IMG/VR virus record: IMGVR_UViG_3300045988_061146 | DNA from: a virus | Length of the DNA stretch: 37,258 nucleotides | Reading direction: 5' to 3' (one strand) | Part shown: positions 17,128 through 36,973 of the stretch, in pieces | Numbering within the stretch: position 1 is the first letter of the stretch | How the letters are laid out: the number at the start of each line of letters is the position of its first letter | Notes under the pieces: model-generated | Told to the model about the DNA's origin: nothing | The model's input: the letters and a program-made list of their open reading frames with translations, nothing else | Database searches by the model: none | Made by a program: the position numbers and the translations under genes

Positions 17128-17147
17128 TTCGGTTCACACTCCTTCCG

Positions 17148-18482: not shown

Positions 18483-18485
18483 GAC

Positions 18486-19500: not shown

Positions 19501-19504
19501 ACGA

Positions 19505-19954: not shown

Positions 19955-19984
19955 GTTTCCACCACCTTTCGCCGGCCGCTTCGG

Positions 19985-20257
19985 TTATACGCCGGCGGCC
20001 TGGATCAACTCGACGATCTCCGCCTTTGTGGAACCGTCAGGAACGTCGATACCGGCGGCCTGGGCGGCCGCCAGAAGTTCGTCCTTGTTCATCTTGGACA
20101 GGGGCTTCACGCCTTCGTTGTCGCCTTCCTGGGCGTCAGGCTCGACGTCAGGGATCGCGGTATAGAAGGGGCTGTTCTTCATCTGTTCCAGGACGGTTTC
20201 GTCGTTAGGCTCGACGATCGACCCGGTTGTGTTGATTCTGAACTTCATGTCGGTCAC
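19985..20257 (-). CDS. Small protein with a C-terminal Rho_N/HeH-like motif
   Basis: KDELLAAAQAAGIDVPDGSTKAEIVELIQAAG. Confidence 0.45.
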   Translation of the reverse strand: MTDMKFRINTTGSIVEPNDETVLEQMKNSPFYTAIPDVEPDAQEGDNEGVKPLSKMNKDELLAAAQAAGIDVPDGSTKAEIVELIQAAGV

Positions 20258-20269
20258 GCTCCTTCCAGA

Positions 20270-21133: not shown

Positions 21134-21170
21134 AAAATATCATTCCTTTCATTGTTGGCTGGTTGGTAGG

Positions 21171-21761
21171 TTAGATCACGACAGGGCCGTCGACCTTTGC
21201 GGCCGGCTCCTGGCGCGCGCCGGGGTCAGCGGGCTTCGCGCCCTTAATGTCGGGGTTCGCCGGGTCCTGGCTCTTGAACAGGTACGCCTTCGACTCCTTC
21301 AAGGGTTTCAGAAGGCCGTCAAGGTCAGTTTTCAGCGTCCCGGCGGCGTCGACCTCGATCTTGTCCAGGTCCAGAAGGGAAATAATGTCGGCCGGGTCGT
21401 GGGCCTGGTTCGCCAGGGCCATTCGAAGGGCCGTGTTCTTCTGAATCTTCGTGATCTCTTTCTGGTGGTTGGTTCGAAGGGTTTCAAGCGTGGTCTGGGC
21501 GGTCTTGACGTCGTCCGCGATCTTCGCCGGATCGCCGGACCCGCCGATCGCCTTCAATGCTTCGGCGGCGGCTTTCAGCGCATTTTCTGCGCTGGTCTTT
21601 CCGCTGTTGGCTCCGTTGTACTTATCGGCCGGGACGAAGGTTCCGTCGTTACCGACGACCAGGTCCACGTCCTTTCCGTCCTTGCCCTTGCCCTTCAAGG
21701 CCGCTTCGACCTGGTTCGACAGGTCGGCCCCCAGAATGGTTTTGACGCTCTCTGTGATCAT
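21171..21761 (-). CDS. Scaffolding protein
   Basis: Ala/Lys/Asp-rich and helical, immediately upstream of the capsid gene. Confidence 0.7.
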   Translation of the reverse strand: MITESVKTILGADLSNQVEAALKGKGKDGKDVDLVVGNDGTFVPADKYNGANSGKTSAENALKAAAEALKAIGGSGDPAKIADDVKTAQTTLETLRTNHQKEITKIQKNTALRMALANQAHDPADIISLLDLDKIEVDAAGTLKTDLDGLLKPLKESKAYLFKSQDPANPDIKGAKPADPGARQEPAAKVDGPVVI

Positions 21762-21849
21762 GGTTTGCTCCTTTCTCCGCTGTCTTTACCGTGACTTCCA
21801 CACGCTTTGCGGTCCCGCCTGGTCGCCGGGCAGGTGCGGCTGGATATGA

Positions 21850-21920
21850 AAAGACCCGCCGGAAGGCGGGTGATTTCCTGAAATGGGTATAAAAAAACGC
21901 CCCGTAGGGCGTTTTCATCT
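21850..21920. terminator. Two adjacent hairpin terminators. The first is cccgcc-ggaa-ggcggg with a T-run on the minus strand. The second is aaaaaaa-acgccc-cgta-gggcgt-tttt and is bidirectional.
   Basis: Read directly from the sequence. Confidence 0.5.
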
Positions 21921-21941
21921 GATTTCATGTGACTTCGTGTG

Positions 21942-22121
21942 TTACTGTTCGTCTTCGTGATACTGGCAGGCCAGGCAAGCCTTCCGGGCGTCGTCTGTCA
22001 GGGTGACGCCGGGGGGAAGGGCCTGTTCTGGCGCTTCTCCGTCGACCACCAGGACGACACAGTAACAGGAATCGCCGTCAATCTGCTTCCCGGTGACGGG
22101 ACAGTTTACAGTCTTCTTCAT
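21942..22121 (-). CDS. Small Cys-rich protein, 59 aa. It is not in the ORF track.
   Basis: MKKTVNCPVTGKQIDGDSCYCVVLVVDGEAPEQALPPGVTLTDDARKACLACQYHEDEQ. The RBS is GGAGGT. The ATG overlaps the minor-head stop as ATGA. Confidence 0.4.
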   Translation of the reverse strand: MKKTVNCPVTGKQIDGDSCYCVVLVVDGEAPEQALPPGVTLTDDARKACLACQYHEDEQ

Positions 22122-23668
22122 TCTTCGAATACCTCCATAGCCTTTTCGACGCTCTGGTCAAAGTCAGACCGGGCGAAGGAAGTGTTGATCTTCCCTTCTT
22201 CGTTGACATAGGTCGCCCCAGTCGGGGAATAATAATTCGTCTTTACGCCGTCCCAGCGCCGCCTTGTGACGCTGAACCGGGCTGTTCTGACATACTCCTT
22301 CGCCTGTTCAAGTGTGACGCCGTGGTGGCTTCCGTGGGCGTCCACGAAGGCAAGGGTCGAAGGGTCAATCGCCGCCGGCGGGACGCGAATTGTCCCCCGG
22401 AATCCGGTCGCCTTGATCCGGTTGTAGATGTCGAAGTCCGCCTTGGTGGCTTCCGGGACGCGCCCCTTGTAGGAATAGAAGGATTTCAGATTGGACCAGG
22501 CGTCCGGGTCTGTGTACTTCATTTCCTGGAAGGCGTCAAGGTCGGACGGCGCGTCAGCGCCCAGGCGTTCGGAATACCGGCCGAACTGCTCCGCGTCCTT
22601 GCCCTGATTATACGACTTCTGGCGTTCCTTTTCAACATAGCCGGGGCCGTGGGCGTCGACTTGCTGTCTGTACCAGTCCTCGTATGTCATATTTTCCGGC
22701 ATAGGCTGGCCGGAATTGTACCAGTCCAGGGCGTCGTCCGGGTCATATTCGACTGTGGTACAGCGGTCGTTCGGGTGCATAGGTGGGTAGTTCACGCCGG
22801 CCTGGGCGTCCTTCAACTTGAAGTGTTTCCCGTCCAGGGCCGCGCACGTTTCACAGGTCCGCGCGTCATGGGTGGCGATATATTCGTACTGATCCACGCC
22901 GGCGGCATTATAGGCCGCCTTGTCCGCTTCGCTGTGGAAATGCGTTGTTTCGGTCCGGATCAGCCGTTCGGCGGCCTTGTAGGACTGGCCCATTTTAGCG
23001 GACAGTTCCTTCGACATGGTCGCCACGCTCTTTCCTTGCATGACGCCTTGCGTGATGGTTTCCCGGACATGGAACAGAAGCGCCTGTTTGTTCCTCCACA
23101 GGCGATCGGAGAACATAGCCCCGGACCAGGGATAGGACAGAACGTTTTCAACTACGCTTTCGTCCAGTTTGGCGAACTCATGGATAAAGCCGGCGCGGGA
23201 CTGAATGTCATAGACCTTCTTGTAGTAGCCTTCCCGGAAGGTTTCGCCGAACTCCGCCTTCATCTGGGACACGCCGGTTTCCCACAGTTCATTAAGTTTC
23301 AGGTCGATTTGTCCCAGAAGGGCTTCCAGGCGGGAAATACGGCTGTTCGTGGACAGGGCGTCCAGTTGGGCCGTCAGAAGGGCCTTGACGCGGGGGTCAG
23401 GCTCCGCCGCGATCCTGGCGATATATTCGCCCAGGGTCGCCTTCCATTCCTGGAACTCCTTCCTGGTCAGAAGGCGGACGGCCTGATCGTATGTCAGGCC
23501 ATACTTCCCGGCGTACTTCGAATAGAAGTCGCCTATGTCGCGCCGGATCGCTTTCGCGGCCCGGTCGTATTCCTGGAACATTTTCGCCGTTAGCCCGACG
23601 CCGCGAAGATAGGCTTCATTCTCACGTTGAAGGGCGCGGGCGATCCAGTATTCCTTATTCCGTATCAT
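22118..23668 (-). CDS. Minor head morphogenesis protein (SPP1 gp7 / Mu F-like) with an uncharacterised C-terminal extension of about 200 aa
   Basis: The conserved HPNDRCT motif. It lies directly downstream of the portal gene. Confidence 0.75.
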   Translation of the reverse strand: MIRNKEYWIARALQRENEAYLRGVGLTAKMFQEYDRAAKAIRRDIGDFYSKYAGKYGLTYDQAVRLLTRKEFQEWKATLGEYIARIAAEPDPRVKALLTAQLDALSTNSRISRLEALLGQIDLKLNELWETGVSQMKAEFGETFREGYYKKVYDIQSRAGFIHEFAKLDESVVENVLSYPWSGAMFSDRLWRNKQALLFHVRETITQGVMQGKSVATMSKELSAKMGQSYKAAERLIRTETTHFHSEADKAAYNAAGVDQYEYIATHDARTCETCAALDGKHFKLKDAQAGVNYPPMHPNDRCTTVEYDPDDALDWYNSGQPMPENMTYEDWYRQQVDAHGPGYVEKERQKSYNQGKDAEQFGRYSERLGADAPSDLDAFQEMKYTDPDAWSNLKSFYSYKGRVPEATKADFDIYNRIKATGFRGTIRVPPAAIDPSTLAFVDAHGSHHGVTLEQAKEYVRTARFSVTRRRWDGVKTNYYSPTGATYVNEEGKINTSFARSDFDQSVEKAMEVFEE

Positions 23669-25172
23669 TCAGGCCACCAGCCTTTCCAGCGGCCCCTTCC
23701 TCGCCCTTCTGGGCCGTCTGTGGGACGTTTCCGGCTCCCAGGGTGTCGTCGAACAGACCTTCCCCAAACTCCGCCATAGCGGCCTTCTTTTCGCTGTCCA
23801 GTTGGGCCAGTTCTTCGTCGACGTCCGTCACCCAGGGGTGATTTTGAAGGATCGTCCGTTTGGAGATCAGGCCGTCACTGGTTCGGGCGTTGTTGATGAT
23901 GTCCGTTTCATTGACCGGAAGGTCCATGTTGAAGACTATGTCGAAGTCCTCGTTCGTGAAGTCGCCCTGGCCGGTGATCTGGAAGTAGACGTCAATGAAC
24001 AGTTTCAGGCGGTGGAAGGTGTCTTTCAGTTCGGTTCCCAGGGAATCACAGTCGGCGTCCAGGTCCATATATCGGAAGTTGATCGCCGATCCGCTGGCGT
24101 TCCCCAGTTCCGGGTCCTTCGTGTCCACGCCGGCCGCGAAGTCGTAAATGTCCCGGCGCTCATTGTCCAGGAAGGCCATGACAGCGTCAATGTTCAGGTC
24201 TGCCTGTAACTTATCCACGCCGCCGTCGGAAGTGACCTTGATCGCCATGTGTTCCTTCAAGTCCTTCAAGAACTCCGCCAGATCGGTTCCGCCGTAGTTT
24301 TTCAGGATATAAATGAACTTCGCCACGTCACGAAGGACGTCGGCCGTCACGCTGTTTTGCCAGTTGATGTCGTCGATCAGGTCCTTTATGAAGTAGCACA
24401 GGGGAAGTTCTTCTTCGTTGTACTTCAACCAGGCGATCGGAACTTCTTCCCAGTTGTAGGGCTTCCCGGCGACGGTGAAGTGTGGTTCAGTCCAGTCGTT
24501 TTCCTCGGTCCCGTGTTCCTTGTCGACGTAGAAGTCGCCGGCCCCGGTCCCGCCGAAGGCGTCCGTCTTGAAGTAGCGAACGCCGCCGGTCCACCAAAAT
24601 TCGGCGTGTGTGATCGTGTGCTTCCTGGTCCCGACATAAATGATCTGGTCATAGAAGCGAATGAAGGCGTCCAGTTTCGTTCGTTCGGAGTCGCGCCACA
24701 GGGGAACGACTTCGGTCGACGGGACACGCATGAAGGCCAGTTCGCCGGCGTCGTCGAAGTAGGGCTGAATCCAGGCGATCCCGGACTTGACCGCGCCTTT
24801 CCCCAGGCTCTTGATCTTCCGGCGGAAGGTCTGGTCAAAGACTTTGTTCAGGGCTTCGCCATATTCTCCGCTTTCGGTGTCCACAGTCCAGGGCTTCGAC
24901 AGAAGGTAGTTCGCCTTCTGGTCCACCAGTTTTTTCAGGATAGGCCGTTCGATCTTTGCGTTCGATCGGTTGGCGACGTCGACCGTCTTCTTCTGGACGG
25001 AAGACCTGTTCCTGTAATACGATTCGGCTTCCAGTATGATTTGATATTGTTCGGACTTCTTGAACTCCCGGATTTCCTCACTGACGATCTGGGCCAGGGT
25101 CATAGTCGCTTTTTCAGGGTCGGACAGGATCAGGTTGATCCGGTCCATGACAGACAGTTCCATTTCCTCCAC
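23655..25172 (-). CDS. Portal protein
   Basis: 505 aa, between the terminase and the minor head gene. Confidence 0.8.
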   Translation of the reverse strand: MEEMELSVMDRINLILSDPEKATMTLAQIVSEEIREFKKSEQYQIILEAESYYRNRSSVQKKTVDVANRSNAKIERPILKKLVDQKANYLLSKPWTVDTESGEYGEALNKVFDQTFRRKIKSLGKGAVKSGIAWIQPYFDDAGELAFMRVPSTEVVPLWRDSERTKLDAFIRFYDQIIYVGTRKHTITHAEFWWTGGVRYFKTDAFGGTGAGDFYVDKEHGTEENDWTEPHFTVAGKPYNWEEVPIAWLKYNEEELPLCYFIKDLIDDINWQNSVTADVLRDVAKFIYILKNYGGTDLAEFLKDLKEHMAIKVTSDGGVDKLQADLNIDAVMAFLDNERRDIYDFAAGVDTKDPELGNASGSAINFRYMDLDADCDSLGTELKDTFHRLKLFIDVYFQITGQGDFTNEDFDIVFNMDLPVNETDIINNARTSDGLISKRTILQNHPWVTDVDEELAQLDSEKKAAMAEFGEGLFDDTLGAGNVPQTAQKGEEGAAGKAGGLNDTE

Positions 25173-25173
25173 C

Positions 25174-26445
25174 TCACTTCAAAACTTCGATAGACGAACC
25201 GCGTCGCGGACGCTCCACGCCATAGCGAAGGGCCGCCATAGCGTCGTCCATGAACTCGACAGGTTCGTCGATATAAAGGCCCGTGGTCGGGTCCTTTTTC
25301 CACTTCCACTGTTGAACTTCTTTCAGAACATTCACACAGGAAGGGTGTATGTGTATCTTTCGGCCTTTCAGGAAGTCGATCTGGGCCTTCACGCTTCCAG
25401 GCTCCTTTTTCACGGGATAGGCGCGGAAGCCGGCCTTCTGCCATGTCCTGATCCGGTCCGGCTCCGCAGAATCGCAGAACATTTCAACGCGCGGGTCAAT
25501 CTTTGCCTGACGGGCCAGGCTGATAATTTCTTCGGTGTCCTTCTCGAAGACGTATATTTCCGAAGTGACGTAGATTTCGCCGTCCTTCCAGCCGACACCC
25601 AGGATCGCGTCGGCATGGTTGAAGCCGAAGTCCTGTCCGTAATAAAAGCCGTCGAAGTAGTCGCGCCTGGTAGGGAAGTTGTGGACTTCGAAGTTCGTCA
25701 GGATCAGGCCGCCCAGTTCGCCCCATTCACCCAGGCCATACACGCGGTAGCCGTCCGGGTCTTCTTCCTTGCGTCGCTCCATGCGGCGGGAATAGGCCGG
25801 GTCTATGAACCGGTTTGTCCTGTATGTCGAATGGTGGGTCAGAACGTCCGGATCGGACTTGTCGAAGTAGCGGGCCTTGATCCAGTGCGTCGCGCTGACC
25901 GGGTTGAAGGTCATTGTGATCTGATAATACAGATTCGGGTTCAGGTCGTCCAGGTTGCCACGAAGACGGTCGTCCAGAATGTCGACGTCTTCCGGAAGAA
26001 GTTCTGTCGCTTCCTCACACCATATCCAGACCAGTTTCCCGTTCTTGAAGGTGATGGACTTGATCTTCTCACGCTGGCGCTGGTCCTTGACGCCCCGGAA
26101 GATAATCCGGTTCCCGGTGATCTTACATTCCAGGGCAAGGGGGTTCAGGTTGACCTTCCAGAAGCGGTCGGCGTAGGGGCCGAACATTCGATAGATCGCC
26201 GCCTGTAACTCTGCGAAGGTGCTGTCGCGGTTCGTTTCTTCAATCTTCCGGACGACGACCAGGTTCGCGCCCTGGTATGCCGGATCGGACAGTTTCGCTA
26301 TGTAGTCCTGGGCGATATTCACAGACTTCCCAGAACCGGCGGACCCCTTCAAAATGCGGTAGCGGCCGCGCCATTCGTTGACAGGGCGGAAGACCGGGTT
26401 AAACTGGGCCGACGCCATGAACTCAACTGTCTGGGCCGTAGTCAT
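25174..26445 (-). CDS. terL: Terminase large subunit
   Basis: Walker A GSAGSGKS, 423 aa, downstream of TerS. Confidence 0.9.
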   Translation of the reverse strand: MTTAQTVEFMASAQFNPVFRPVNEWRGRYRILKGSAGSGKSVNIAQDYIAKLSDPAYQGANLVVVRKIEETNRDSTFAELQAAIYRMFGPYADRFWKVNLNPLALECKITGNRIIFRGVKDQRQREKIKSITFKNGKLVWIWCEEATELLPEDVDILDDRLRGNLDDLNPNLYYQITMTFNPVSATHWIKARYFDKSDPDVLTHHSTYRTNRFIDPAYSRRMERRKEEDPDGYRVYGLGEWGELGGLILTNFEVHNFPTRRDYFDGFYYGQDFGFNHADAILGVGWKDGEIYVTSEIYVFEKDTEEIISLARQAKIDPRVEMFCDSAEPDRIRTWQKAGFRAYPVKKEPGSVKAQIDFLKGRKIHIHPSCVNVLKEVQQWKWKKDPTTGLYIDEPVEFMDDAMAALRYGVERPRRGSSIEVLK

Positions 26446-26923
26446 AATTGATCACCACCGTCACAGGGGCGGTGCTGTCCGGGCTGTCCTTGAACATTCC
26501 CAGGTGCTTTCCGCACAGTTCCAGGGCCTTCAACTTGTCCGCCAGGCGGACTTCCCGTTCCACGCCGTCGCCGTCTTCTCCGGGGATCACTTTCACCTTC
26601 ACGGAAGCGATCGCGGCCGTGTCGTCGCGGGAAGCGTCAGTCAGGACTGTCGCGTCGGTCATGTTGATCACGTCGATCGCGTTCACGAAGGCGATTTTCC
26701 CCAGTTCCAACAGGACCCGGTCGGCGTTGATCCCGGTTCGCTTTGACCTTTCGGCCATAGCGCGGTCTATGCGCGCGCGGATTTCAGGTTTTTTCAGCAA
26801 TTCACTTCCGATACTCCCCGCAGATTCCACGGAATATCCGGCGCGGATCGCGGCCTGGGTCGCGTTCAGGTCGATCAGGTATTCGTCACAGAAGACTTCA
26901 TTCTTCTTCGTCAGTTTTCCCAC
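26423..26923 (-). CDS. terS: Terminase small subunit (P27 family)
   Basis: N-terminal HTH-like FCDEYLIDLNATQAAIRAGYS, 166 aa. Confidence 0.8.
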   Translation of the reverse strand: MGKLTKKNEVFCDEYLIDLNATQAAIRAGYSVESAGSIGSELLKKPEIRARIDRAMAERSKRTGINADRVLLELGKIAFVNAIDVINMTDATVLTDASRDDTAAIASVKVKVIPGEDGDGVEREVRLADKLKALELCGKHLGMFKDSPDSTAPVTVVINYDYGPDS

Positions 26924-27150: not shown

Positions 27151-27666
27151 TCATTCGATATTCCCGTGAAGGCGGATATATTTCCGGACCAGGCGGTCGA
27201 CGGCCGTTTTCCTCTGGCGGCTGACGGTGGAACCGTCCATGTCCAGAAGTTCGGCGGCCTGGGCGTATGTCCGGCGCGGATAGTACAGGGTCAGAAGAAT
27301 GATCTTCGACTTCGCGTCCATTGTCAGGATCGCTTCGTGTACGTTTTCAATCTGGCGTTGTCGTTCTTCCAGGGCGTCGGTCGCTCTCTTTGTTCTGGCG
27401 GTCCGGCGCTGGATCGCGTCGGCCACCTTTACCAGAAGGCCGTCAGGGTCGGGGGACGACTGGACGCGGGGCGTATCATATCGGACGCCGCGCGGGTAGG
27501 CTCTGGCCCTGATTGCTTCCAGGTCTTCTTCCAGGGCGGCGCGCTCTGCGTCGATCTGCGCTTCAATAGTCGACATTTCCTGGTCGTGGTTCTTCAATAT
27601 GTCGTAGACGCGGCGGGCCGTCTGGTCCGCGCGGTCTTTCTTTTCTTTGGCGTCCATGCCGTTCAC
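27151..27666 (-). CDS. ArpU-family phage late transcriptional activator (sigma-70 region-4-like HTH)
   Basis: C-terminal TYAQAAELLDMDGSTVSRQRKTAVDRLVRKY, 171 aa, directly upstream of terS. Confidence 0.7.
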   Translation of the reverse strand: MNGMDAKEKKDRADQTARRVYDILKNHDQEMSTIEAQIDAERAALEEDLEAIRARAYPRGVRYDTPRVQSSPDPDGLLVKVADAIQRRTARTKRATDALEERQRQIENVHEAILTMDAKSKIILLTLYYPRRTYAQAAELLDMDGSTVSRQRKTAVDRLVRKYIRLHGNIE

Positions 27667-27683: not shown

Positions 27684-28091
27684 TCAGAAGGGAAGTTCAC
27701 CGTCTTCCCCGTCAATCTCTGCGAAGCCCTCGTTCTCCATGTAACCGGCGGCCAGGCTCCCGGCCGGCTGATCCTCTGCGGCGCGGCGGGATTCCGCGAA
27801 CTCGACTTCATCGGCCACCACTTCGAAGCGGGTTCTTTTGTTCCCGTCCTTGTCAGTGTAGGGGTCGACCCTGATCCGGCCGGACGCGATAATCACGCGC
27901 TGGCCCTTGCGGAAATACTTCGCGACGAACTCCGCAGTCTTCCGCCAGGTCGTGACGGGTATGAAGTCCGCTTCCTCGCGGTTGAACTTTCGGTCGACGG
28001 CCAGGGCGAAGGTTGCCACAGGGACGCCGTTCGGCGTTTGCTTCAACTCCGGATCGCGCGTCAGGCGTCCGGACAGTTTCACGTCGTTCAT
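27684..28091 (-). CDS. ssb: Single-stranded DNA-binding protein
   Basis: OB-fold N-terminus (MNDVKLSGRLTRDPELKQTPNGVPVATFALAV...TTWRKTAEF) and an acidic C-terminal tail ...DGELPF. Confidence 0.9.
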   Translation of the reverse strand: MNDVKLSGRLTRDPELKQTPNGVPVATFALAVDRKFNREEADFIPVTTWRKTAEFVAKYFRKGQRVIIASGRIRVDPYTDKDGNKRTRFEVVADEVEFAESRRAAEDQPAGSLAAGYMENEGFAEIDGEDGELPF

Positions 28092-28369
28092 ATAGAATCA
28101 CCTTCCTTCCATGCTTGGGCGAACTTCGTGATCCGGTACAGTTCGCCCCAGGGGTCTTTCTTCTGGGCGCGGCCCCATAGGAACAAGGCCACGCCGATTT
28201 TCAATGATTGCCAGGTCGTGATCGGCCCGGTCCCGTTTGCCAGTTTGCGAACAAATGATTTCCCGTGATAGCGAAGGCAAGCGAACGCCACCACACAGGG
28301 AAGGACCTGGTCTTCGGGTATGTCCAGGGCTTCGGCCAACTTCTTCGCGGCTTCTTCGCTTCTGCTCAC
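28088..28369 (-). CDS. Hypothetical protein, about 94 aa, from a GTG start with GTGA coupling
   Basis: The RBS GGAGGTGACGCC precedes GTG. The N-terminal part of track ORF 28088..28684 is Arg/Pro-rich junk. Confidence 0.4.
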   Translation of the reverse strand: MSRSEEAAKKLAEALDIPEDQVLPCVVAFACLRYHGKSFVRKLANGTGPITTWQSLKIGVALFLWGRAQKKDPWGELYRITKFAQAWKEGDSI

Positions 28370-28857
28370 GGCGTCACCTCCGTCACGATATACAGGCGGA
28401 CCGCCTGGCGGCCGAAGACAAGGGCTTCGTGGTGGTCTTCGAAGTAGATGTCGACAGCGTTCCCCTTTATGGCTCCGCCGCGATCCTGGACCACTCGTTC
28501 GCCCAGGCCGTCTATGTAGACGACGGTCCCAGGGGGAAGAACGTCCCAGTCGGCCGCGATCGTGACGCCCTGTTCGGCGACAGCTCCGCTTGCCGTGTAG
28601 ACGATTCCGTCCGGGCGGTTCAGCGCCCAGGAACCACAGCACTTTTCGCAAGAACAGTACGCGGTCGCTTCGTATTCGATCCATTCCGGTTCTTTCGGTT
28701 CTGGTTCCGGGGCGGGCGGCTGTGCGGCCACGGCGGCGACTGCCGGCGGCTCTGTCGGCTCACTCTCTGCCGGCTGTGTCCCGGTTCCCTTCGCGGTCCA
28801 CGCACACGCGGTCAGGGCCACCAGGGCCAGCAGAAGGACGGTGGGTAGTTTCTTCAT
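28366..28857 (-). CDS. Lipoprotein with a 3D-domain (MltA/YuiC-like peptidoglycan-binding or lytic fold), about 163 aa from M45
   Basis: Signal peptide and lipobox MKKLPTVLLLALVALTAC. A Pro/Glu/Ala linker. The 3D-like core is EATAYCSCEKCCG...IAADWDVLPPGTVVYIDGLGERVVQDRGGAIKGNAVDIYF. Confidence 0.6.
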   Translation of the reverse strand: MKKLPTVLLLALVALTACAWTAKGTGTQPAESEPTEPPAVAAVAAQPPAPEPEPKEPEWIEYEATAYCSCEKCCGSWALNRPDGIVYTASGAVAEQGVTIAADWDVLPPGTVVYIDGLGERVVQDRGGAIKGNAVDIYFEDHHEALVFGRQAVRLYIVTEVTP

Positions 28858-28871
28858 AGGACCACCGCCTT

Positions 28872-29683: not shown

Positions 29684-29915
29684 AGAAGACGCCGTCGAAA
29701 ATGTCGAAGTCGTCTGCGTCCCAGTACGCTTCGCAATCGGAACAAGCGGCGACAGCGACTTCCATTGGTCCGCCTTCGGCCTTTTTGAAGGTCTTCCGAA
29801 GGCGACCATTTCTTCCGACAACATGATCCAGCGAATACTGATACAGGAAGGACACGACGATTTTCCCGCCGCACAGCGGACAGCGGCTTCTTGGTGTGCC
29901 TTCATTTGATTTCAT
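29646..29915 (-). CDS. Zinc-ribbon protein, 89 aa
   Basis: CPLCGGK ... CSDCEAYW paired CxxC motifs. Confidence 0.5.
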   Translation of the reverse strand: MKSNEGTPRSRCPLCGGKIVVSFLYQYSLDHVVGRNGRLRKTFKKAEGGPMEVAVAACSDCEAYWDADDFDIFDGVFYDQKYGEGEDCE

Positions 29916-29921
29916 TCGGTT

Positions 29922-30284
29922 TCACGTCCTCCCCCAGTCTTGGTCCCCAGTTTCGCAAATATGGACGATGTGTTCGCACAGCGCCGGCGGTATTCGCGAC
30001 CGTTCCTTGCTCCCACTCAATCCCTGGGTCCCAGTCTTCGCCCCGCGCGGGGCCGGTATATGGCACGGGTCCCCATTGTGGCACGGTGGCCGGAACTCCG
30101 GGACCGGGTGATTTGTCCAGATGTCGGTCGGCTTCATACGGGTGTCCCCGTATTGGCAGTAGGTTACAGTGAACCGCCGAAGCCCAGACATAAAGTCCAT
30201 TTTCCGCATACCGCCGCGCGGGTTCTCGATGAACCACCAGGTCGGCGACAGCGACATGATCAGCCCGTGGACGTGCAGATTCAC
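29922..30284 (-). CDS. C-terminal half of a compact C5-cytosine DNA methyltransferase-like protein, motifs VI-X
   Basis: FIENPRGG matches the ENV motif. It is followed by RFTVTYCQYGDTRMKPTDIW and a C-terminal RIPPALCEHIV. Confidence 0.65.
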   Translation of the reverse strand: MNLHVHGLIMSLSPTWWFIENPRGGMRKMDFMSGLRRFTVTYCQYGDTRMKPTDIWTNHPVPEFRPPCHNGDPCHIPAPRGAKTGTQGLSGSKERSRIPPALCEHIVHICETGDQDWGRT

Positions 30285-30583
30285 GCGGTCGCAGAACTTG
30301 GCATATTCCGAAACTGCTTCCAGGTTCGTACCCCCCCCGCAGTGCGGCGGCGGTGTCTGCTGATTGCGGCGATACTGTACGTTGCACAGTCAGGGCTTGC
30401 CCAGATCACGTCAGGACGCCCAAACTTCTGAATAATTTCGTCCGGAGTTATTTGAAGGACATCTTTGTAAAGGTCGATATTTTCGAAGGACTTGTCCCAC
30501 TCGACAGAAAAGACTTCATGTCCACGCGCTTCGAACGCCTTCCCGATAGATCGCGTTCCGGCGAATAATTCAAGAACTTTCAT
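30281..30583 (-). CDS. N-terminal half of the same C5-methyltransferase-like protein (motifs I and IV, with an atypical SPDC instead of PCQ). It ends 50 nt after a G8 homopolymer, and its stop overlaps the downstream ATG as ATGA.
   Basis: MKVLELFAGTRS (motif I-like), SVEWDK, and DVIWASPDCATYSIAAIS (a motif IV variant). Confidence 0.65.
   Translation of the reverse strand: MKVLELFAGTRSIGKAFEARGHEVFSVEWDKSFENIDLYKDVLQITPDEIIQKFGRPDVIWASPDCATYSIAAISRHRRRTAGGVRTWKQFRNMPSSATA
30331..30338. repeat. C8/G8 homopolymeric tract inside the methyltransferase N-terminal half
   Basis: ccccccccgc on the plus strand, encoding A-G-G-V (gcg ggg ggg gta) on the minus strand. Confidence 0.6.
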
Positions 30584-30813
30584 TTTGAGTCACCTTCTTC
30601 CGGAATCGGTTCGTAGCAATCACAGCGGACGACGCGATCTTCTTCGTCTGCGCGGATCGGGCCTGGAAGGCCGGCGTCGGCCCTCTCGACCGCCTTCACG
30701 CAGTAGTCGCCTTCGCGCCCTTTGGCGTCGTCCTTGATGAACTGGACGTTCTGGCAGTTCCGACAGGAAAAGGCGTATTTCCACTTCGGAAGGGCCGGTT
30801 TTCTTCTTCTCAT
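30580..30813 (-). CDS. Small Cys-rich zinc-finger protein, 77 aa
   Basis: CRNCQN ... CDCYEP. Confidence 0.45.
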   Translation of the reverse strand: MRRRKPALPKWKYAFSCRNCQNVQFIKDDAKGREGDYCVKAVERADAGLPGPIRADEEDRVVRCDCYEPIPEEGDSK

Positions 30814-31082
30814 GCGCCCACCGCCTTTTCTCCGGCGGCCGTGATCTCCGCGTTCCTGATTTCACACCAGGCGGAAAAGGCCATTTCCCGGACTGTGTCA
30901 GCGGTCAGAAGGACCAGGTATTCGTCGCCGTAGCCGTCTTCGCCGTATATGCGGCCGGCGCGCTCGTTGCACATATCCAGTTTTCGGCGGGCGTACTGTT
31001 CGGCCTGGCCGAAGAAGTCTGGGTCCAGGACAGTTCCCAGGCTTTCTTCGACTCTGGCCTTCAACTCACAGGACCCGATCAT
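30810..31082 (-). CDS. Hypothetical protein, 90 aa
   Basis: A coupled ORF in the early operon. Confidence 0.4.
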   Translation of the reverse strand: MIGSCELKARVEESLGTVLDPDFFGQAEQYARRKLDMCNERAGRIYGEDGYGDEYLVLLTADTVREMAFSAWCEIRNAEITAAGEKAVGA

Positions 31083-31759
31083 TCGTCTTCGTTGTCCTCT
31101 CTGGCGGCGATCCGGCGAAGGACTTCGTTCACAAGTTGCTTCGACGTGAAGCCGGTCAACAGGGCTTCGTCAGACAGTTCGATTTCCTCCTGATCCAGCG
31201 ACAGGCAGATTTCAGAGTCCACGAAAAAAGCCGGGCGAACGCTGTTGTTGCCGTTGTACGCATAGGCCCGGCTCAGACTGCCGCCGGAAGAGACATACCG
31301 CACGCGGTTCGCGCTGCCGGCGGTCGGGGTGATCGTCCATTCCCAGTCGTCGATCTCCAACAGGCCCGCGTCGTAATACTTCCGGACCAGGGGTTCGGGC
31401 AACATGGCGACCTTGCAGACGGCGACGCCGTAACGGTTCGTTCCGTCGTGGTCCTCCAGGCTCCACTCGGCTTCCAGGACCTTGTTCGCCGGGATCACGC
31501 CGGCGTCGTCCAGGGCGGACAGGAAGTCTTCGTTCAGGTCGAACCGAAGGGTGGAGAAGGCGAAGTTATTCGCGGCCGGCTCCGGCTCCATGCGGTTATA
31601 GGTGAATGGCCGGACGGTGAAGGGGCGGTTCCCGATCGGCTCCTTCGCGGCCAGAAGGGTTCGGCCGTCGGTGAAGTGTTCCAGGACGACCACTTCCACG
31701 GGGCCGGCGTTGAAGTAGGCCCCAGGGGCCAGGTTCTTAATTTTTGCGCTTACTGCCAT
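31079..31759 (-). CDS. DGR target protein 2. It is a small stand-alone C-type-lectin-like protein of about 226 aa from the internal M, with VR2 followed by an acidic tail of about 50 aa.
   Basis: It contains the 100-bp VR2, which translates to TPTAGSANRVRYVSSGGSLSRAYAYNGNNSVRPA. The RBS is AGGGAGGAAAACAAA followed by ATG. It sits in the early/replication operon and overlaps the end of rusA. Confidence 0.7.
   Translation of the reverse strand: MAVSAKIKNLAPGAYFNAGPVEVVVLEHFTDGRTLLAAKEPIGNRPFTVRPFTYNRMEPEPAANNFAFSTLRFDLNEDFLSALDDAGVIPANKVLEAEWSLEDHDGTNRYGVAVCKVAMLPEPLVRKYYDAGLLEIDDWEWTITPTAGSANRVRYVSSGGSLSRAYAYNGNNSVRPAFFVDSEICLSLDQEEIELSDEALLTGFTSKQLVNEVLRRIAAREDNEDE
31231..31330 (-). repeat. 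DGR variable repeat VR2 (remote)
   Basis: It is a 100-bp copy of the TR. Twelve of the 14 mismatches fall at TR adenine positions. It shares with VR1 the IMH variant cccggCttt, where the TR has cccggAttt. Coordinates are ±2 nt. Confidence 0.75.
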
Positions 31760-32150
31760 TTTGTTTTCCTCCCTCATATTCTTCGATCGTGACTTCGACG
31801 CGCGGGTTCTTCGGGTCCAGGGCGAAGTCGTCGCTGAATCCTTCAATTTCCGACCAGCCGTCATTTCGAAGGACGCCGGTTTCGACCAGGGCGTCCTGAA
31901 TGAACTTTTTCGCAAAGGCGATATTGTCCTTGTCGCGGCGGCGGCTGGGTTCGACCCACAGGTAGCGGATCACCACAGGACGGGTGAAGCGGACGCCCCG
32001 AAGTTGTGTTCGGATCATGTAGCCGATCGCGTTCTGGGCCTGGCGCTTCATGGAAGCGGCCTTGTACTTGCCCTTGTATGACCGTTCCGCGTCGATGTAC
32101 TCATTCAGTCCCGGCAACAGGCCGGGGATTGTCAGTTTATATTTCTTCAT
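31737..32150 (-). CDS. rusA: RusA-family Holliday junction resolvase, about 137 aa from MKKYKL
   Basis: MKKYKLTIPGLLPGLNEYIDAERSYKGKYKAASMKRQAQN...RRRDKDNIAFAKKFIQDALVETGVLRNDGW. Confidence 0.8.
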   Translation of the reverse strand: MKKYKLTIPGLLPGLNEYIDAERSYKGKYKAASMKRQAQNAIGYMIRTQLRGVRFTRPVVIRYLWVEPSRRRDKDNIAFAKKFIQDALVETGVLRNDGWSEIEGFSDDFALDPKNPRVEVTIEEYEGGKQNGSKRKN

Positions 32151-33043
32151 TGGTCTTGTCCTTTCGTCAGGCCCAGGATTCGCCGGGCGGCGTCCCTTCG
32201 GTCGGTGGCGTTCGCTGTTCTGCGGGACGCTCCGACCATTTTCAGGCGGATCGGACACATTTCCAGGACCCGGTCGTAAATGCGCTTGTAGGCCAGGGAA
32301 GGCGGGTTTTCCAGGTCCTTCAAGGACAGGTTTGTCGTGATGATCACGGGCTTCCCGGACCTTGCCCTGGTGTCGACCACGTTGTAGACCTGTTCGACGG
32401 AATAGGACGTGTCCCGTTCGACGCCCAGGTCGTCGATCACCAGAAGGGAATAGTGTTGAAGGCGGTCGATCCGCTTCTGTCGTTCGTCGTCAAAGGACCC
32501 TTGAAGGCTGTTCAGGATTCGCGGGAAGTTGGTCACGCTGACACTGACCAGCCGTTCCAGAAGGGCGTTCGCGATTGCACAGGCCAGGAAGGACTTCCCG
32601 GTCCCGACGTCGCCATAGAACAGAATCCCGATGTTCTGGGCCTTCATTTCCTCCCAGTTCTCGACGTAGCGGCGACAGACGTCGCTGACCTTTGGGTTCC
32701 GCTGGTCGTCCTGGGCGAAGGTGTATTGCAAATAGGCCGGGTCCGTGATCCCGTCGCGGCGAAGCCGGTCCATTCGTTGCTCAAACTCCCGGCGCTCTCT
32801 GTCGGCCTTCTCTGCGTCGGCTTTTTCCTGGCCGCATTTGCACAGACAGCCGACGCGGATCGTCTTCGCGTCCCGGCCGATGGACGGGACCGCCGGAAGG
32901 GTGACGTCCATTTGCTTCCGTTCGTGGCAGTTGCCACAGCACAGGAAGCCTTCGTCGTCGAAGTAGTCGTCCGGTTCCTGGTTTTGAAGGCTTTTCTGGA
33001 CCATACCGGCCAGAACGTCGCCGATTGCGTTCATAGCGATCAC
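32147..33043 (-). CDS. DnaC/IstB-like helicase loader ATPase with an N-terminal zinc finger
   Basis: Walker A GDVGTGKSFLACAIAN, Walker B LLVIDDLG, and an N-terminal CCGNC...CLCKCG. Confidence 0.85.
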   Translation of the reverse strand: MIAMNAIGDVLAGMVQKSLQNQEPDDYFDDEGFLCCGNCHERKQMDVTLPAVPSIGRDAKTIRVGCLCKCGQEKADAEKADRERREFEQRMDRLRRDGITDPAYLQYTFAQDDQRNPKVSDVCRRYVENWEEMKAQNIGILFYGDVGTGKSFLACAIANALLERLVSVSVTNFPRILNSLQGSFDDERQKRIDRLQHYSLLVIDDLGVERDTSYSVEQVYNVVDTRARSGKPVIITTNLSLKDLENPPSLAYKRIYDRVLEMCPIRLKMVGASRRTANATDRRDAARRILGLTKGQDQ

Positions 33044-33819
33044 CGTCCTTCCAGGAAGTCTTCGTCGTCACCATAGTCCTTCTTCGGCACGGCTCCCTTC
33101 GGGGGCTGGGACGGTACGTCAGGCCGGTCGTCTTCCTCCCAGCGGCGGCCGCGAATGAACGTGGCCGGGTAGCAGATAAACGATCCGCCGTCCTTCGTCC
33201 ACTGGTCACAGGTCTTCCAGCGTTCCACGCCGGCGACGATCAGTTCGACCAGGTCGTCGTCCGGGTTCAGTTGGCCCCAGGCTTTCAGGGCGTCCTGTTT
33301 TCCGACCCGGCGCGGATATACAGCCCAGAAGCGATCAAAACCGCGCGGTGTCCCCGTCGCCCCGGTTGGGCGCGTTCCCGTTTCTCGTTCCTCGTTCTCG
33401 TTTACGTTTTCGTTCTCGTTTACGGGGACTTTTGATTTCATTTGATTTCCTTTCCTTTGATTGCAAGTGTTATCAAATGAAACAGGAAGGGGGAACTTGC
33501 TTTTCTTCGCTCTCTGTTGCTGGTGCTTGTCCCACGACATAAGTTTCAGGTATTGCTTCCCGTCCTCGCTGGCCGTGTAGGTTCCGACCATTCCGGCGGC
33601 GACCAGTTCAGACAGCCAGGCCCGGATTTTCTGTTCCTTCGGCGGGTCCAGGGGGAAGCACACGGACGCCAGGATTCGCGGATTTCCGTAGTACAGGCCG
33701 AAGTCGTCCGCCTTGACCACCAGTCGCCAGAAAAGGCGCTCGGCGTCCGCGCTCACCTCCGACAGCGATTCGCTGGTAGTGATTGATTCTTTGATTATGC
33801 GGCTCGGCACGTTTGCCAC
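33040..33819 (-). CDS. Phage replisome organiser / DnaD-like replication initiation protein
   Basis: A replisome-organiser-like N-terminal domain (FWRLVVKADDFGLYYGNPRILAS), a central low-complexity NENENVNENEE stretch, and a position upstream of the DnaC-like loader. Confidence 0.65.
   Translation of the reverse strand: MANVPSRIIKESITTSESLSEVSADAERLFWRLVVKADDFGLYYGNPRILASVCFPLDPPKEQKIRAWLSELVAAGMVGTYTASEDGKQYLKLMSWDKHQQQRAKKSKFPLPVSFDNTCNQRKGNQMKSKVPVNENENVNENEERETGTRPTGATGTPRGFDRFWAVYPRRVGKQDALKAWGQLNPDDDLVELIVAGVERWKTCDQWTKDGGSFICYPATFIRGRRWEEDDRPDVPSQPPKGAVPKKDYGDDEDFLEGR
33370..33430. repeat. Iteron-like direct repeats inside the replisome-organiser gene: cgttctcgtttacg twice with a 4-nt spacer, preceded by a degenerate copy
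   Basis: Read directly from the sequence. This is a candidate phage replication origin. Confidence 0.4.
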
Positions 33820-33825
33820 CTCCTT

Positions 33826-34677
33826 TTACAATGCTTTTTGACAGGTCCGACAGGCTTCGCGACCATATTTCCGGACGGAATAGTCCTGTTCGGCCTTTGT
33901 GATTGGTTTCCCACAGATCGGGCAGACTGCCCCGTTCTCTGCCTGGGGCGCTGGTGTACCCGCTGGCGCGCCCTGGCGGCCCCTGGGGGCCTGTTTGCCC
34001 TGTCCCTGGGTGTTTCCCTGGGTGGTTGTTCCCTGGCCGCCCTGGGCTGTCTGTGGCGGTCCCTGGACCCTCTTGTTCATGTCGAACCGGACGTTTCCGT
34101 TCCGGTCCGCGATCACCAGTTCGCAAATCTCCCGGCGGTCGTTATAGGCGACGTGGGTGACGGTGAAGCGGGTGTTCGAATAGCATTTCAGGACTTCCTT
34201 CCGTCCGTTCTGGCCTTCGAAATAGAACTCGTTGTCGGCCAGTTCGACATAGATGAAGGGGCCTGTGTAGAGTTCGCGGCCGATCCCCACGTTGAAGCCG
34301 GCGCGCTTGAAGGCGTCGGACGCCTGGCCTTTTTCTTTCTCGGTGTTGCTCTCGACGCCGACGTCCTGTTTCCGGACCCAGGCGCGCTTCTCTGCGTCCC
34401 AGATGTCGATATTACAAAACAGGTTCCCGTTGATCACTTCATGGGTTCGTTGCCAGTTCCCAGGGCCGAAGACCTGGTCAAGAATCCGCATATCGACGCG
34501 GGCGTCCTTGTAAAGCAACAGGACAGCACCGACGCGGCCTGTTTTCGCGCGGCTGACGCTCTGAACGCGACATTCGATGTCTTTTTCCGTCAGAAGGGGA
34601 ATGTCGTTCCTGACGGCCGCTGGCGGGTCCAGGGCGGCCTGTTCGGCCGCCTGGGTGGTCGTTTTCTTATCTGCCAT
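33826..34677 (-). CDS. Rad52/Sak-family single-strand annealing protein with a Gln/Gly-rich linker and a C-terminal zinc ribbon
   Basis: IECRVQS...VLLLYKDARVDMRILDQVFGPGNWQ matches the Rad52 N-terminal signature. The C-terminus is CPICGKP...CRTCQ. Confidence 0.7.
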   Translation of the reverse strand: MADKKTTTQAAEQAALDPPAAVRNDIPLLTEKDIECRVQSVSRAKTGRVGAVLLLYKDARVDMRILDQVFGPGNWQRTHEVINGNLFCNIDIWDAEKRAWVRKQDVGVESNTEKEKGQASDAFKRAGFNVGIGRELYTGPFIYVELADNEFYFEGQNGRKEVLKCYSNTRFTVTHVAYNDRREICELVIADRNGNVRFDMNKRVQGPPQTAQGGQGTTTQGNTQGQGKQAPRGRQGAPAGTPAPQAENGAVCPICGKPITKAEQDYSVRKYGREACRTCQKAL

Positions 34678-34690: not shown

Positions 34691-35185
34691 TTACTTGATC
34701 TGAATGTTCCGGTTCTCGACCAGGGAAGCCCCGGTCACGTCTTCGCCGGCCTGGATTGCTTTCTTGATCGCGGTCTTGTCCGGCTTTGTGGTCACTGTGG
34801 TCGTGACGTAGTCAGCCGGAAGCGCCGCTTCGTCGTCGATCTGGACCTGGATAGACTTCCGGAAACTGATCCGGGCCTTTGCGGTTTCGACCTTGTCCTT
34901 CCCGACAGTCACCAGGCACGAAGACAGGTACTTCTTCACGCTGTCGACGCGGCGTTCGACGGCCTTACGGCGGGTCGACAGGTTTTCTTCCTCTGCTTTC
35001 AGGTCAGCGGCGAAGGCTGACAGGTTCTTAATGTAACAGGCCACGCTTTCGGCCTTGTCCTCGAACTGGGCGTCCAGTGCTTCCACGGCGTCGAAGTTCA
35101 TGATCTCGCCGGTTTCTTCGTCCACTTCCAGGCCGTCCAGGGCTTTCAGGAAGTCGGCGCTGATTTCATACAGGCTTACGTTCAT
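34691..35185 (-). CDS. Sipho_Gp157-family protein
   Basis: N-terminal MNVSLYEISADFLKALDGL. It is adjacent to the annealing protein, which is the conserved pairing. Confidence 0.65.
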   Translation of the reverse strand: MNVSLYEISADFLKALDGLEVDEETGEIMNFDAVEALDAQFEDKAESVACYIKNLSAFAADLKAEEENLSTRRKAVERRVDSVKKYLSSCLVTVGKDKVETAKARISFRKSIQVQIDDEAALPADYVTTTVTTKPDKTAIKKAIQAGEDVTGASLVENRNIQIK

Positions 35186-35879: not shown

Positions 35880-36245
35880 TTAAGCCACCCCCCCGCAGAA
35901 TTGAACGCCGGTTTCGACCAGGGCGTCCAGGGAAACGGTCAGGTCCCGCGCTCCGTAGGGCGCGCCCTTGATCCCGTACAGTTTCGCCGCGTCTTTGCAG
36001 TTCAGGACTTCATATTGCAGTTGGGCGAAGATGTGCTGTTCCAGGTCCTTTCCCTTGTCCGGGTCGTAGTTCTCGACGGCGCGGATCATGCGGATCGCTA
36101 ACTGCCGGAAGACGTCTTCGTCGTCCAGGCCGGCGGCACTGATCAGACGCCGGTTCTTGTTGATGGTCCACCAGATACAGCCCAGATGTGTTTCGACCAG
36201 GGCGTTTCGCTCCTGGGTGGTGATCGTCCACTTCAAGGCTGTCAC
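35880..36245 (-). CDS. Sigma-70 region-2-like domain protein, a putative early transcription regulator, about 121 aa from GTG
   Basis: NALVETHLGCIWWTINKNRRLISAAGLDDEDVFRQLAIRMIRAVENYDPDKGKDLEQHIFAQLQYEV resembles sigma region 2. The GTG start is coupled to the upstream stop. Confidence 0.45.
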   Translation of the reverse strand: MTALKWTITTQERNALVETHLGCIWWTINKNRRLISAAGLDDEDVFRQLAIRMIRAVENYDPDKGKDLEQHIFAQLQYEVLNCKDAAKLYGIKGAPYGARDLTVSLDALVETGVQFCGGVA

Positions 36246-36517
36246 CTTCCTTCCATGCGCGCCCTGACGGCGGAATAGAAGTCTTCCGGGGTCATGTCGG
36301 GCGGTACGGTTAGGGCGATCGTGTGGAACTGCTTCCGGCATTTCGTACATTCCCGGCGTTCAATCGCGCCGACCGTCCAGACATTCACGCTTCCGCCGCG
36401 TCCCTGGGATAGACCGATTTCCCCACAAAATGGGCAGATCACACGAAGGCCGTTCTTCGCGATTTTCCCGTCTTCACAGATCACACCGTTTGTCGGCTGA
36501 CTCACGATTTCCTTCAT
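36242..36517 (-). CDS. Zinc-finger protein (CxxC-N-CxxC), possibly an Ogr/Delta-like regulator, about 91 aa from MKEIV
   Basis: ICPFCGE...(22)...CTKCRKQFHT. Confidence 0.4.
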   Translation of the reverse strand: MKEIVSQPTNGVICEDGKIAKNGLRVICPFCGEIGLSQGRGGSVNVWTVGAIERRECTKCRKQFHTIALTVPPDMTPEDFYSAVRARMEGR

Positions 36518-36678
36518 TCGCCCACCGCCTTTTCTTCCCGCGCGTCGGTACGCTTGCCCTTTTTCTTTTTCTGGGGAAGGGTGATCCCCAGTTTCGCGGC
36601 GCACGTCCGGCCGTAACCGACTTCGCGGAAAAACGGGTCCTTCAATCGGCGGCCACAGCGCCCACAGGTATCAGACAT
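36514..36678 (-). CDS. Small CGRC zinc-binding protein, about 54 aa
   Basis: MSDTCGRCGRRLKDPFFREVGYGRTCAAKLG. The RBS is AAGGAGGGAAATGCAA followed by ATG. Confidence 0.4.
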   Translation of the reverse strand: MSDTCGRCGRRLKDPFFREVGYGRTCAAKLGITLPQKKKKGKRTDAREEKAVGE

Positions 36679-36973
36679 TTGCATTTCCCTCCTTCTTTCG
36701 TCCACGGCGGCGAAGGCCCTCCTGGACCCGCTTCTGGGCCAGTTCCGGGTCATACGCCGGGCGGAAGTTCTTGTCCAGGGTGACGCCGTCCTGGCCGCGC
36801 TTCAACTCGGTATAGACGGTGGTTCGCGACACGCCGATTTTCTGGGCGATTTCGCCGGCGATCGCCCCGTTCGCATACATGGAAGCGATCGTCTTTCGGT
36901 CGTCGAACTCGATCGTTTTGAACTGTCTTGCCACGTTTTCACCTTCTTTCTTTTCCTTTGGCGGCGTCACCAA
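36671..36973 (-). CDS. Stand-alone HTH_38-type DNA-binding protein that resembles the N-terminal HTH of the IS30 transposase. It may start at an internal GTG near 36934.
   Basis: IASMYANGAIAGEIAQKIGVSRTTVYTELKRG compared with the transposase sequence IEAFLKCGKSVQEIADEIGVHRNTIYNELKRG. Confidence 0.5.
   Translation of the reverse strand: MVTPPKEKKEGENVARQFKTIEFDDRKTIASMYANGAIAGEIAQKIGVSRTTVYTELKRGQDGVTLDKNFRPAYDPELAQKRVQEGLRRRGRKKEGNANV

Follow-up and report, generated by a model that had tools for sequence, protein, structure and literature searches.

The window analysed here, that is, the whole 37,258-nt stretch of viral DNA in IMG/VR record IMGVR_UViG_3300045988_061146, contains a 104-nt repeat that was recovered in three copies by a repeat search (Table 1). 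One copy is the template repeat (TR) of a diversity-generating retroelement (DGR), another (variable repeat 1, VR1) lies within the adjoining target gene, and the third (VR2) lies within tgt2, a small gene that stands among replication genes and encodes a stand-alone variable protein of the DUF6273 family. The existence of this remote third copy, first proposed from the letters alone (hereafter the sequence-only reading), was borne out, with TR and VR2 separated by 22,739 nt start to start. Positions 1-99 of the window recur exactly as a terminal direct repeat at 37160-37258, and the window is hence taken as a circularly closed (or terminally redundant) complete genome of approximately 37,159 bp; across the junction of this circle the distance between TR and VR2 is only about 14.4 kb. 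The tgt2 gene is preceded by a GGGAGG Shine-Dalgarno sequence 8 nt upstream of its ATG, overlaps the open reading frame (ORF) of a RusA-like resolvase by 23 nt, and has a stop codon that overlaps the next start as ATGA. These overlaps, along with the PHROG and Pfam assignments of its neighbours (RusA-like, DnaC-like loader, replication initiator and Erf-like), upheld the earlier claim that tgt2 is coupled to rusA, a DnaC-like loader and a replication initiator.

Comparison of the three copies revealed 12 differences between VR1 and the TR, all at TR adenines (12/12), and 15 between VR2 and the TR, of which 13 were at TR adenines. With 29 adenines in 104 nt, the hypergeometric probability of at least 13 in 15 is ~4e-7, which rules out a chance repeat. 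The previously reported count of 12 adenine sites in 14 differences is exact if an A to C change at repeat position 100, common to VR1 and VR2, is left out of the 13/15. This position was occupied by C in 10/10 VRs and by A in 5/5 TRs from the five genomes compared. Over the 22 nt that lie downstream of the repeat, VR1 agreed with VR2 at 15/22 positions and with the TR at 7/22, which fits a VR-type initiation of mutagenic homing (IMH) element, although homology of the encoded proteins (ALFLAPD versus AFFVDSE) contributes to this similarity; the sequence-only reading had likewise attributed a VR-type IMH to both VRs. The TR is the source of the VR2 sequence, in that the two lie on the same strand, carry the same GC-rich IMH-like block and differ almost only at TR adenines. 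The TR lies 165 nt upstream of the reverse transcriptase (RT) ORF, and its AAC/AAT codons, 11 in number, represent the usual DGR design. Nothing resembling the BPP-1 hairpin or cruciform was found in the sequence that directly follows VR1, VR2 or the TR, the sole inverted repeat in their vicinity being one of 6 bp some 60 nt downstream of VR2.

The variability of VR2 was assessed in 117 homologues of tgt2 (82-94% identity) from public assemblies, in which hypervariability was confined to VR2 codons 146-172. The hypervariable residues (146, 149, 151, 152, 155, 157, 161, 163-166, 169, 171 and 172) each displayed 9-14 residue types with an entropy of 1.6-3.4 bits, whilst positions 159 and 168, also inside VR2, varied less (1.1-1.3 bits). 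Outside VR2, entropy did not exceed 1.6 bits and most sites had 2-5 residue types. Clusters of tgt2 at 90% identity comprised up to 3,809 distinct sequences each. The contrast is illustrated by the window and its near-identical relative L003, between which the 191 scaffold codons show 4 nt differences and the 35 VR codons show 22. The ORF was intact in 16/16 aligned copies, with a scaffold dN/dS of ~0.43.

Four IMG/VR contigs that contain both the RT and tgt2 loci allowed VR2 to be compared with its cognate TR, and differences fell at adenine sites in 14/16, 22/22, 12/13 and 13/15 cases. The TRs of these lineages also differ from that of the window at non-adenine sites, for instance with AACAACAACAACGCCTGGAAT replacing AACTGGAACAATGCGTACAAC, and VR2 and VR1 each carry the non-adenine version of their own lineage. 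Such copying of lineage-specific changes is expected only if VR2 is repeatedly overwritten from the TR. In L028, L033 and L035, codon blocks are rearranged relative to the TR of the window (a Trp codon, for example, has moved), and both VRs follow. Drift of the TR between lineages, with the VRs following, amounts to a natural record of the flow of information from TR to VR. VR2 is thus a live, currently active target of the single DGR of the phage and not a decayed one, and the invariance that would have pointed to an inactive target was refuted.

A Pfam search identified DUF6273 (PF19789) at residues 139-182 of the tgt2 product, just above the curated threshold, and the protein matched phrog_9958 from end to end. 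An AlphaFold2 model computed with 80 diverse relatives (predicted local distance difference test score, pLDDT, 92.6; predicted template modelling score, pTM, 0.83) consists of a compact alpha/beta domain followed by two short helices in an acidic tail, and on this model tgt2 is predicted to be a soluble, single-domain protein that folds as a C-type lectin. Strands 152-156 and 162-166 form a hairpin close to the C-terminal end of the lectin domain, and the hypervariable residues lie within it and around it, an arrangement that Baykov et al. also give for the nd4 and nd12 homologues; judging from the secondary structure and from the published models of the nd4 and nd12 homologues, the VR2 residues are probably exposed at the surface. 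Neither a hydrophobic N-terminus, a strongly hydrophobic segment nor a signal peptide was detected in tgt2, in agreement with its earlier description as a lectin-like protein of about 226 aa lacking a signal peptide. A strongly hydrophobic segment was likewise found in none of the small family members tested; 4/96 family representatives had one, all of them long multidomain proteins (513-2,344 aa). Attachment domains such as the N-terminal beta-prism or beta-sandwich of Mtd, which serve in trimerisation and in binding to the tail fibre, were not found in tgt2, and members of the small DUF6273 family differ in their C-terminal extension or lack it. PADLOC models of known anti-phage defence systems matched neither tgt2 nor any of nine neighbouring ORFs.

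The stand-alone form of ~200-260 aa made up most of the relatives listed among 306 clusters at 50% identity. When 87 family representatives were scanned against Pfam for informative domain fusions, DUF6273 was the only domain found, except that RecJ_OB, fn3 and Ig domains turned up in isolated instances. The representative with a RecJ OB-fold domain (E 2.5e-13) could be genuinely fused to a recombination protein, or else its gene call wrongly runs through neighbouring genes.

The other target of the DGR, a protein known as tentaclin or ‘Hoc-like’, has a DUF6273 domain at residues 40-254 (E 5e-31), which contains VR1, and a Big_9 (Ig-like) domain at residues 371-469; it thus shows the tentaclin architecture of a VR in an N-terminal lectin domain followed by Ig-like domains. 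The tgt2 protein has the features of the ‘tgt2’ type described by Baykov and colleagues (2023), namely a lone lectin domain, short flanking helices, a length of about 200-300 aa, a VR near the 3′ end and a TR in common with a tentaclin. Pairwise BLAST similarity between tgt2 and tentaclin was confined to the VR-encoded stretch (45% over 49 residues); the two are old paralogues whose VRs have been homogenised by the common TR, as opposed to a recent duplication. The genes of the cassette are arranged Avd-TR-RT-target, with VR1 in the 5′ half of the tentaclin gene, and the RT and tentaclin ORFs share 65 nt (7196-7260). The Avd call is supported by the location of the ORF immediately upstream of the TR. 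When phmmer was run with the Avd proteins of the window and of Toutatis, an Avd-like ORF was picked out in L136, and 206 relatives of the RT were present in IMG/VR.

A motif search of IMG/VR yielded 391 relatives of the small DUF6273 protein, a sub-alignment having been used for this locus search because the whole-family profile was too diverse. The 55 loci with the most flanking DNA, representing 19 lineages at <70% identity, were then analysed. PHROG annotation of 149 neighbouring proteins (within six genes on each side, 18 lineages) was dominated by families for replication, recombination, methylation and regulation, led by replication initiators, helicases, Holliday-junction resolvases, DNA methyltransferases, DnaD-like loaders, SbcCD and regulators, and none of the 25 most frequent neighbours was a capsid, portal, tail-tube or baseplate family. 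In a marker map of the 19 lineages, the small target follows the integrase or transposase and either precedes the replication genes or lies within them, and two loci had the complete series Avd - RT - tentaclin - amidase - integrase - ... - small target. In phage nd4 (TR 19658-19763, VR1 21731-21836, VR2 31387-31492), the coding sequence with VR2 (30965..31669) is located past the lysis genes and among early genes, with the genes for single-stranded DNA-binding protein (SSB) and DnaC downstream. In FP_Toutatis, gp24, the small DUF6273 gene, is found among genes for methylases, a 3D-domain protein, a replication initiator and antiterminator Q, whilst the Avd-TR-RT cassette follows the tail genes. 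Synteny with related phages thus held in all 19 lineages, nd4 and Toutatis, and because it recurs in this manner the early-module position is a property of the family and not an accident of the window genome. This argues against a ‘misplaced’ fibre gene, an option that the sequence-only reading had raised.

The early region of the window also encodes an exported 3D-domain protein (28366-28860, minus strand) with the lipobox-like N-terminus MKKLPTVLLLALVALTAC. Peptidoglycan-hydrolase-like proteins of ~200-270 aa, anchored by a signal or transmembrane segment, were encoded within six genes of the small DUF6273 gene in 8/18 other lineages (L099 7828-8358, L105 1319-2017, L160 6160-6957 and others), and the 3D-domain gene of Toutatis lies eight genes from gp24. 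A functional link between these 3D-domain hydrolase-like proteins and the lectin-fold target is possible.

Table 1. Features of the window, in the order tgt2 and DGR repeats, DGR proteins and remaining genes from the early region onwards.
Feature	Coordinates	Strand	Remarks
tgt2, stand-alone DUF6273 variable protein	31079..31759	-	226 aa; lectin domain aa ~1-189; helical acidic tail aa ~197-226
VR2	31227..31330	-	codes for aa 144-178 of tgt2; variable sites within 31323-31243
IMH-like 3′ end of VR2	31227..31243	-	GC-rich block GGCGTTCGCCCGG, then C (TR: A), TTT
TR	8488..8591	-	29 adenines; 11 AAC/AAT codons in VR frame
VR1	6509..6612	-	inside tentaclin-type target, aa ~216-250
Avd-like accessory protein	8613..9188	-	Pfam bAvd-like, E 1e-3, below curated cut-off
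DGR reverse transcriptase	7196..8323	-	Pfam RVT_1, E 1.7e-15
Target 1, tentaclin / ‘Hoc-like’	5554..7260	-	568 aa; phrog_10993, E 7e-208
DNA-binding and sigma-like genes	36973..35880	-	start of early region
Mu Gam-like gene	35185..34691	-	
Erf-like single-strand annealing protein	33826..34677	-	
Replication initiation protein	33040..33819	-	phrog_270, E 8e-32
DnaC/IstB-like helicase loader	32147..33043	-	Pfam and PHROG annotation
RusA-like resolvase	31737..32258	-	phrog_1682, E 2e-38; 3′ end overlaps tgt2 start
90-aa ORF	30810..31082	-	start overlaps tgt2 stop (ATGA); one of two small ORFs (90 and 77 aa) after tgt2
C5 cytosine methyltransferase	29902-30583	-	looks truncated or frameshifted
Exported 3D-domain protein	28366..28860	-	Pfam 3D, E 2e-14
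SSB	28091..27684	-	
Sigma-70 region-4-like regulator	27151..27666	-	phrog_36; Sigma70_r4 match weak; just upstream of terS
terS	26923..26423	-	
terS, terL, portal, head, sheath, tape measure, baseplate, short tail fibre	26923..9306	-	
Avd, TR, RT, tentaclin-type target	9188..5554	-	after tail genes
Endolysin	4081..3182	-	
Transposase-like gene	197-1378	-	phrog_4646

The gene order given in Table 1 was established from PHROG and Pfam annotation. The phage is a small temperate myovirus of the gut with a G+C content of 57%, in which all convincing genes are on the minus strand and transcription runs from high to low coordinates. The genes for SSB, the sigma-like regulator and terS are all downstream of tgt2, and the boundary between the pre-late and late regions was set at this sigma-70 region-4-like regulator. 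A crude consensus scan of the minus strand between 27327 and 37110 revealed nothing that resembled a promoter or a terminator. Within 26-37 kb, the highest-scoring sigma-70-like promoter was on the plus strand at 35486-35514 (TTGAAA-17-TATAAT with TG, 11/12), and may indicate a divergently transcribed regulatory gene, or antisense transcription close to where the early operon begins. The 90-aa ORF that follows tgt2 had no family matches in Pfam, PHROG or PADLOC. In the methylase region, ORF 30583..30281 covers just positions 1-86 of PF00145 (C5 methylase) and is overlapped in a different frame by ORF 30387..29902, which had no matches; further unannotated ORFs occur between the C5-methylase and the 3D-domain gene. 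The phrog_4646 ‘transposase’ occupies the slot where an integrase would be expected, and a 100-aa paralogue of its N-terminal DNA-binding domain (repeat D3, 73% identical) is encoded at the start of the early region (36671-36973, minus strand).

A tgt2 homologue of 86% identity was found, in the same gene order, in a prophage copy on a 267-kb contig of a Flavonifractor plautii metagenome-assembled genome (MAG). In this prophage (L180) the portal gene was called as three pieces (16505-18030) and several genes are missing relative to the window, which suggests that the prophage is decaying or that the assembly is faulty. No close relatives turned up when GTDB species-representative genomes were scanned, and so the assignment of F. 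plautii as the probable host of the window phage relies on this one contig and on the nd4-like prophage reported by Baykov and colleagues. No close relative was present in INPHARED either, where tblastn gave four matches only, each of <60% identity.

We favour an explanation in which VR2 is an active second target of the DGR and tgt2 is a ligand binder whose specificity can be re-drawn, likelier off the virion than on it, and give this a probability of roughly 60%. By analogy with BPP-1, the Avd-TR-RT cassette would produce adenine-mutagenised cDNA, which would replace VR2 in trans by IMH-directed mutagenic retrohoming; tgt2 would then serve as a ligand-binding module with a continually re-drawn specificity, and we infer that its ligand varies between hosts or over time. 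Whether tgt2 acts away from the virion, as a non-structural binder that is produced ahead of the late genes, we regard as an even call. The lean in this direction arises because, in small temperate phages, genes tend to be ordered by timing and function, because the early-module position is conserved, because an attachment domain is absent and the C-terminal extension is not conserved, and because tentaclin already fills the tail-adjacent slot. The sequence-only reading had described the protein as probably cytoplasmic. A cytoplasmic role is plausible from the genomic context; the argument from the missing signal peptide falls, since virion proteins such as Mtd also lack one.

Several points weigh against this explanation. 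The labels ‘early’ and ‘non-virion’ are tentative, being read from gene order, and transcripts of the early operon may persist into late infection. To our knowledge, Mtd of BPP-1 is the one experimentally studied phage DGR target, and it is a receptor binder of the virion. The annotated tail fibre of the window (9306-10070, minus strand; 254 aa) covers positions 4-267 of the 480-position phrog_7037 and thus apparently lacks the distal receptor-binding part, and as it matches just the N-terminal half of its family, a separately encoded tip adhesin is conceivable. The Avd-like match is weak, and two of the VR2 differences from the TR are at non-adenine sites (T60 to C and G87 to A). Published analyses of homologues, moreover, favour receptor binding (PMC10743442; 10.1101/2024.10.15.618418).

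The alternative that survives best is accordingly that tgt2 is a virion-associated, Mtd-like adhesin or receptor binder that is merely encoded in the early region, docking, perhaps by its C-terminal helices, on the short tail fibre or on another part of the virion. The shortened fibre speaks for it. In about 20 lineages, however, the gene is situated in the replication/early block, and in the windows examined never beside structural genes; beta-prism or beta-sandwich domains by which it might attach are lacking, the extension that might dock is sometimes absent altogether, and tentaclin, whose gene comes straight after those of the tail, would be a more obvious adhesin of the virion. We therefore consider this alternative a serious contender of somewhat less than even standing.

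Considerably less probable is a fixed tgt2 function with VR2 diversified only as a by-product of carrying an IMH. Such hitch-hiking would accord with Toutatisvirus, in which the small gene is core (98.8% of genomes) and the DGR is present in just 68% (10.1101/2024.10.15.618418). Nonetheless, VR2 has stayed matched to the TR in several lineages with diverged TRs, the IMH has been lost in no lineage examined, and the variable positions fall in the hairpin and loops, on the domain surface in the nd4 and nd12 homologues (PMC10743442). It is very improbable that the ORF was displaced as a fragment from a tail fibre or tentaclin gene, or that it arose by recent duplication of the tentaclin lectin domain: both targets do belong to DUF6273 and have the VR-encoded stretch in common, but the idea was rejected on the end-to-end phrog_9958 match, the complete compact predicted domain and the lack of BLAST-detectable similarity to tentaclin outside the VR, and both the predominance of the stand-alone form among the listed relatives and the conserved synteny oppose it. 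Least credible of all is a decayed, inactive relic of a former target, for which the two non-adenine differences and the distance of VR2 from the cassette could be cited, and which was rejected on the population data, namely hypervariability restricted to VR2 codons, the tracking of lineage TRs (with all 22 differences at adenines in one lineage), and intact ORFs with unrelated VR2 sequences in near-identical genomes.

As a wider and rather unlikely extension of the favoured explanation, the small stand-alone DUF6273 proteins could form a family-wide class of pre-late, non-virion DGR targets, serving as soluble, intracellular ‘adaptive’ binders, of re-drawable specificity and produced ahead of particle assembly, as opposed to a tropism switch. 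Binders of this kind could possibly neutralise or sense variable host factors such as defence proteins; an alternative, equally only possible, is that the small DUF6273 binders act with the exported 3D-domain wall hydrolase of the same early regions.

Phage DGRs are understood mainly as tropism switches on virion tips. The window provides a well-documented and highly active case of one TR feeding two very different lectin-fold proteins, the smaller of which is reproducibly encoded with replication and recombination genes across many lineages of Oscillospiraceae phages. If the non-structural role is true, phage DGRs also diversify an intracellular or otherwise off-virion binder, which would offer a testable way towards new functions in counter-defence or host takeover, and towards natural scaffolds for binders that work inside cells; if tgt2 is instead a fibre-tip adhesin, it is an ordinary second receptor-binding protein with an odd gene location. 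The conserved early-module placement makes the hypothesis of a non-structural DGR target directly testable.

In its fold, tgt2 resembles Mtd (BPP-1) and TvpA (Treponema denticola), which likewise have a VR at the C-terminal end of a C-type-lectin domain, mutagenesis of AAC codons and an IMH at the 3′ end of the VR. A DUF6273 domain is also known from the N-terminus of the Thomasclavelia ramosa IgA protease (PDB 9qa6; PMC12402451), where it is part of a secreted, probably sortase-anchored 137-kDa peptidase and, unlike tgt2, is not a DGR target.

The sequence-only reading presumed that DGR targets are almost always surface-exposed, a premise that is dated because non-structural or intracellular targets have already been proposed or reported. 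For Quimbyvirus, Benler et al. 2021 (PMC8008677) proposed that the second target is non-structural, cyanobacteria are reported to have intracellular DGR targets (PMC7517822), and in multicellular bacteria the reported targets include putative sensors of antigens in conflict systems (PMC10907252). Non-adjacent targets are common within prophages (Wu et al.; PMC5758913). The earlier interpretation is supported in part: that of an active remote target among replication genes stands, whilst the emphasis on a cytoplasmic, unusual protein was overstated, and ‘unusual’ in particular requires qualification given these reports and the published two-target systems. Quimbyvirus (ORF 80/84) resembles the window phage in having one DGR and two C-type-lectin targets, one by the tail genes and the other distal to the structural module. 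It is, however, a Bacteroides phage of an unrelated family, and its second target is on the opposite strand in a defence/counter-defence island, whereas tgt2 is part of a co-directional replication operon.

The closest known systems are those of the gut phages nd4 and nd12, described by Baykov et al. 2023 (PMC10743442), who named the large target ‘tentaclin’, modelled the small one as a lone C-type-lectin domain flanked by helices, with its variable positions on the domain surface, and proposed an Mtd-like receptor-binding role. Like the window tgt2, nd4_tgt2 and nd12_tgt2 (~230-290 aa) are stand-alone DUF6273 lectin domains with a VR close to the 3′ end, and a single TR diversifies both the small target and the tentaclin; in nd4 the small target is non-adjacent to the cassette (11.7 kb from the TR) and among early genes, and an nd4-like prophage occurs in F. 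plautii. The window tgt2 is nevertheless only ~31% identical to nd4_tgt2 (tblastn E 7e-14 for nd4 and E 1e-7 for nd12), and the 37-kb backbone of its phage, lacking a close INPHARED relative, differs from those of nd4 and nd12. In that study both targets were treated as parts of one ‘cassette’, and the replication-module context was not mentioned, the word ‘replication’ being absent from the text.

A second DUF6273 target was also described in Toutatis, 17,480 nt from the TR, by Egorov et al. (10.1101/2024.10.15.618418), who suggested receptor binding, and a study of Faecalibacterium prophages (PMC11792537) reported large and small DUF6273 targets in Lelie and CP11, leaving their function open. 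As in the window, these three phages combine a remote small DUF6273 target with a Hoc-like/tentaclin target, which in Toutatis comes just after the RT with the small gene among early genes. They differ in host genus (Faecalibacterium) and in small targets that are beyond the reach of tblastn at 1e-5, and Toutatisvirus differs further in that the small gene is core even in genomes without the DGR. The design of a tentaclin paired with a small DUF6273 target is thus already published for nd4/nd12, Toutatis and Lelie/CP11, in papers that do not discuss the consistent early-region position of the small gene; what is new here is the high activity of the window tgt2 and an early/replication position that is conserved across approximately 20 lineages.

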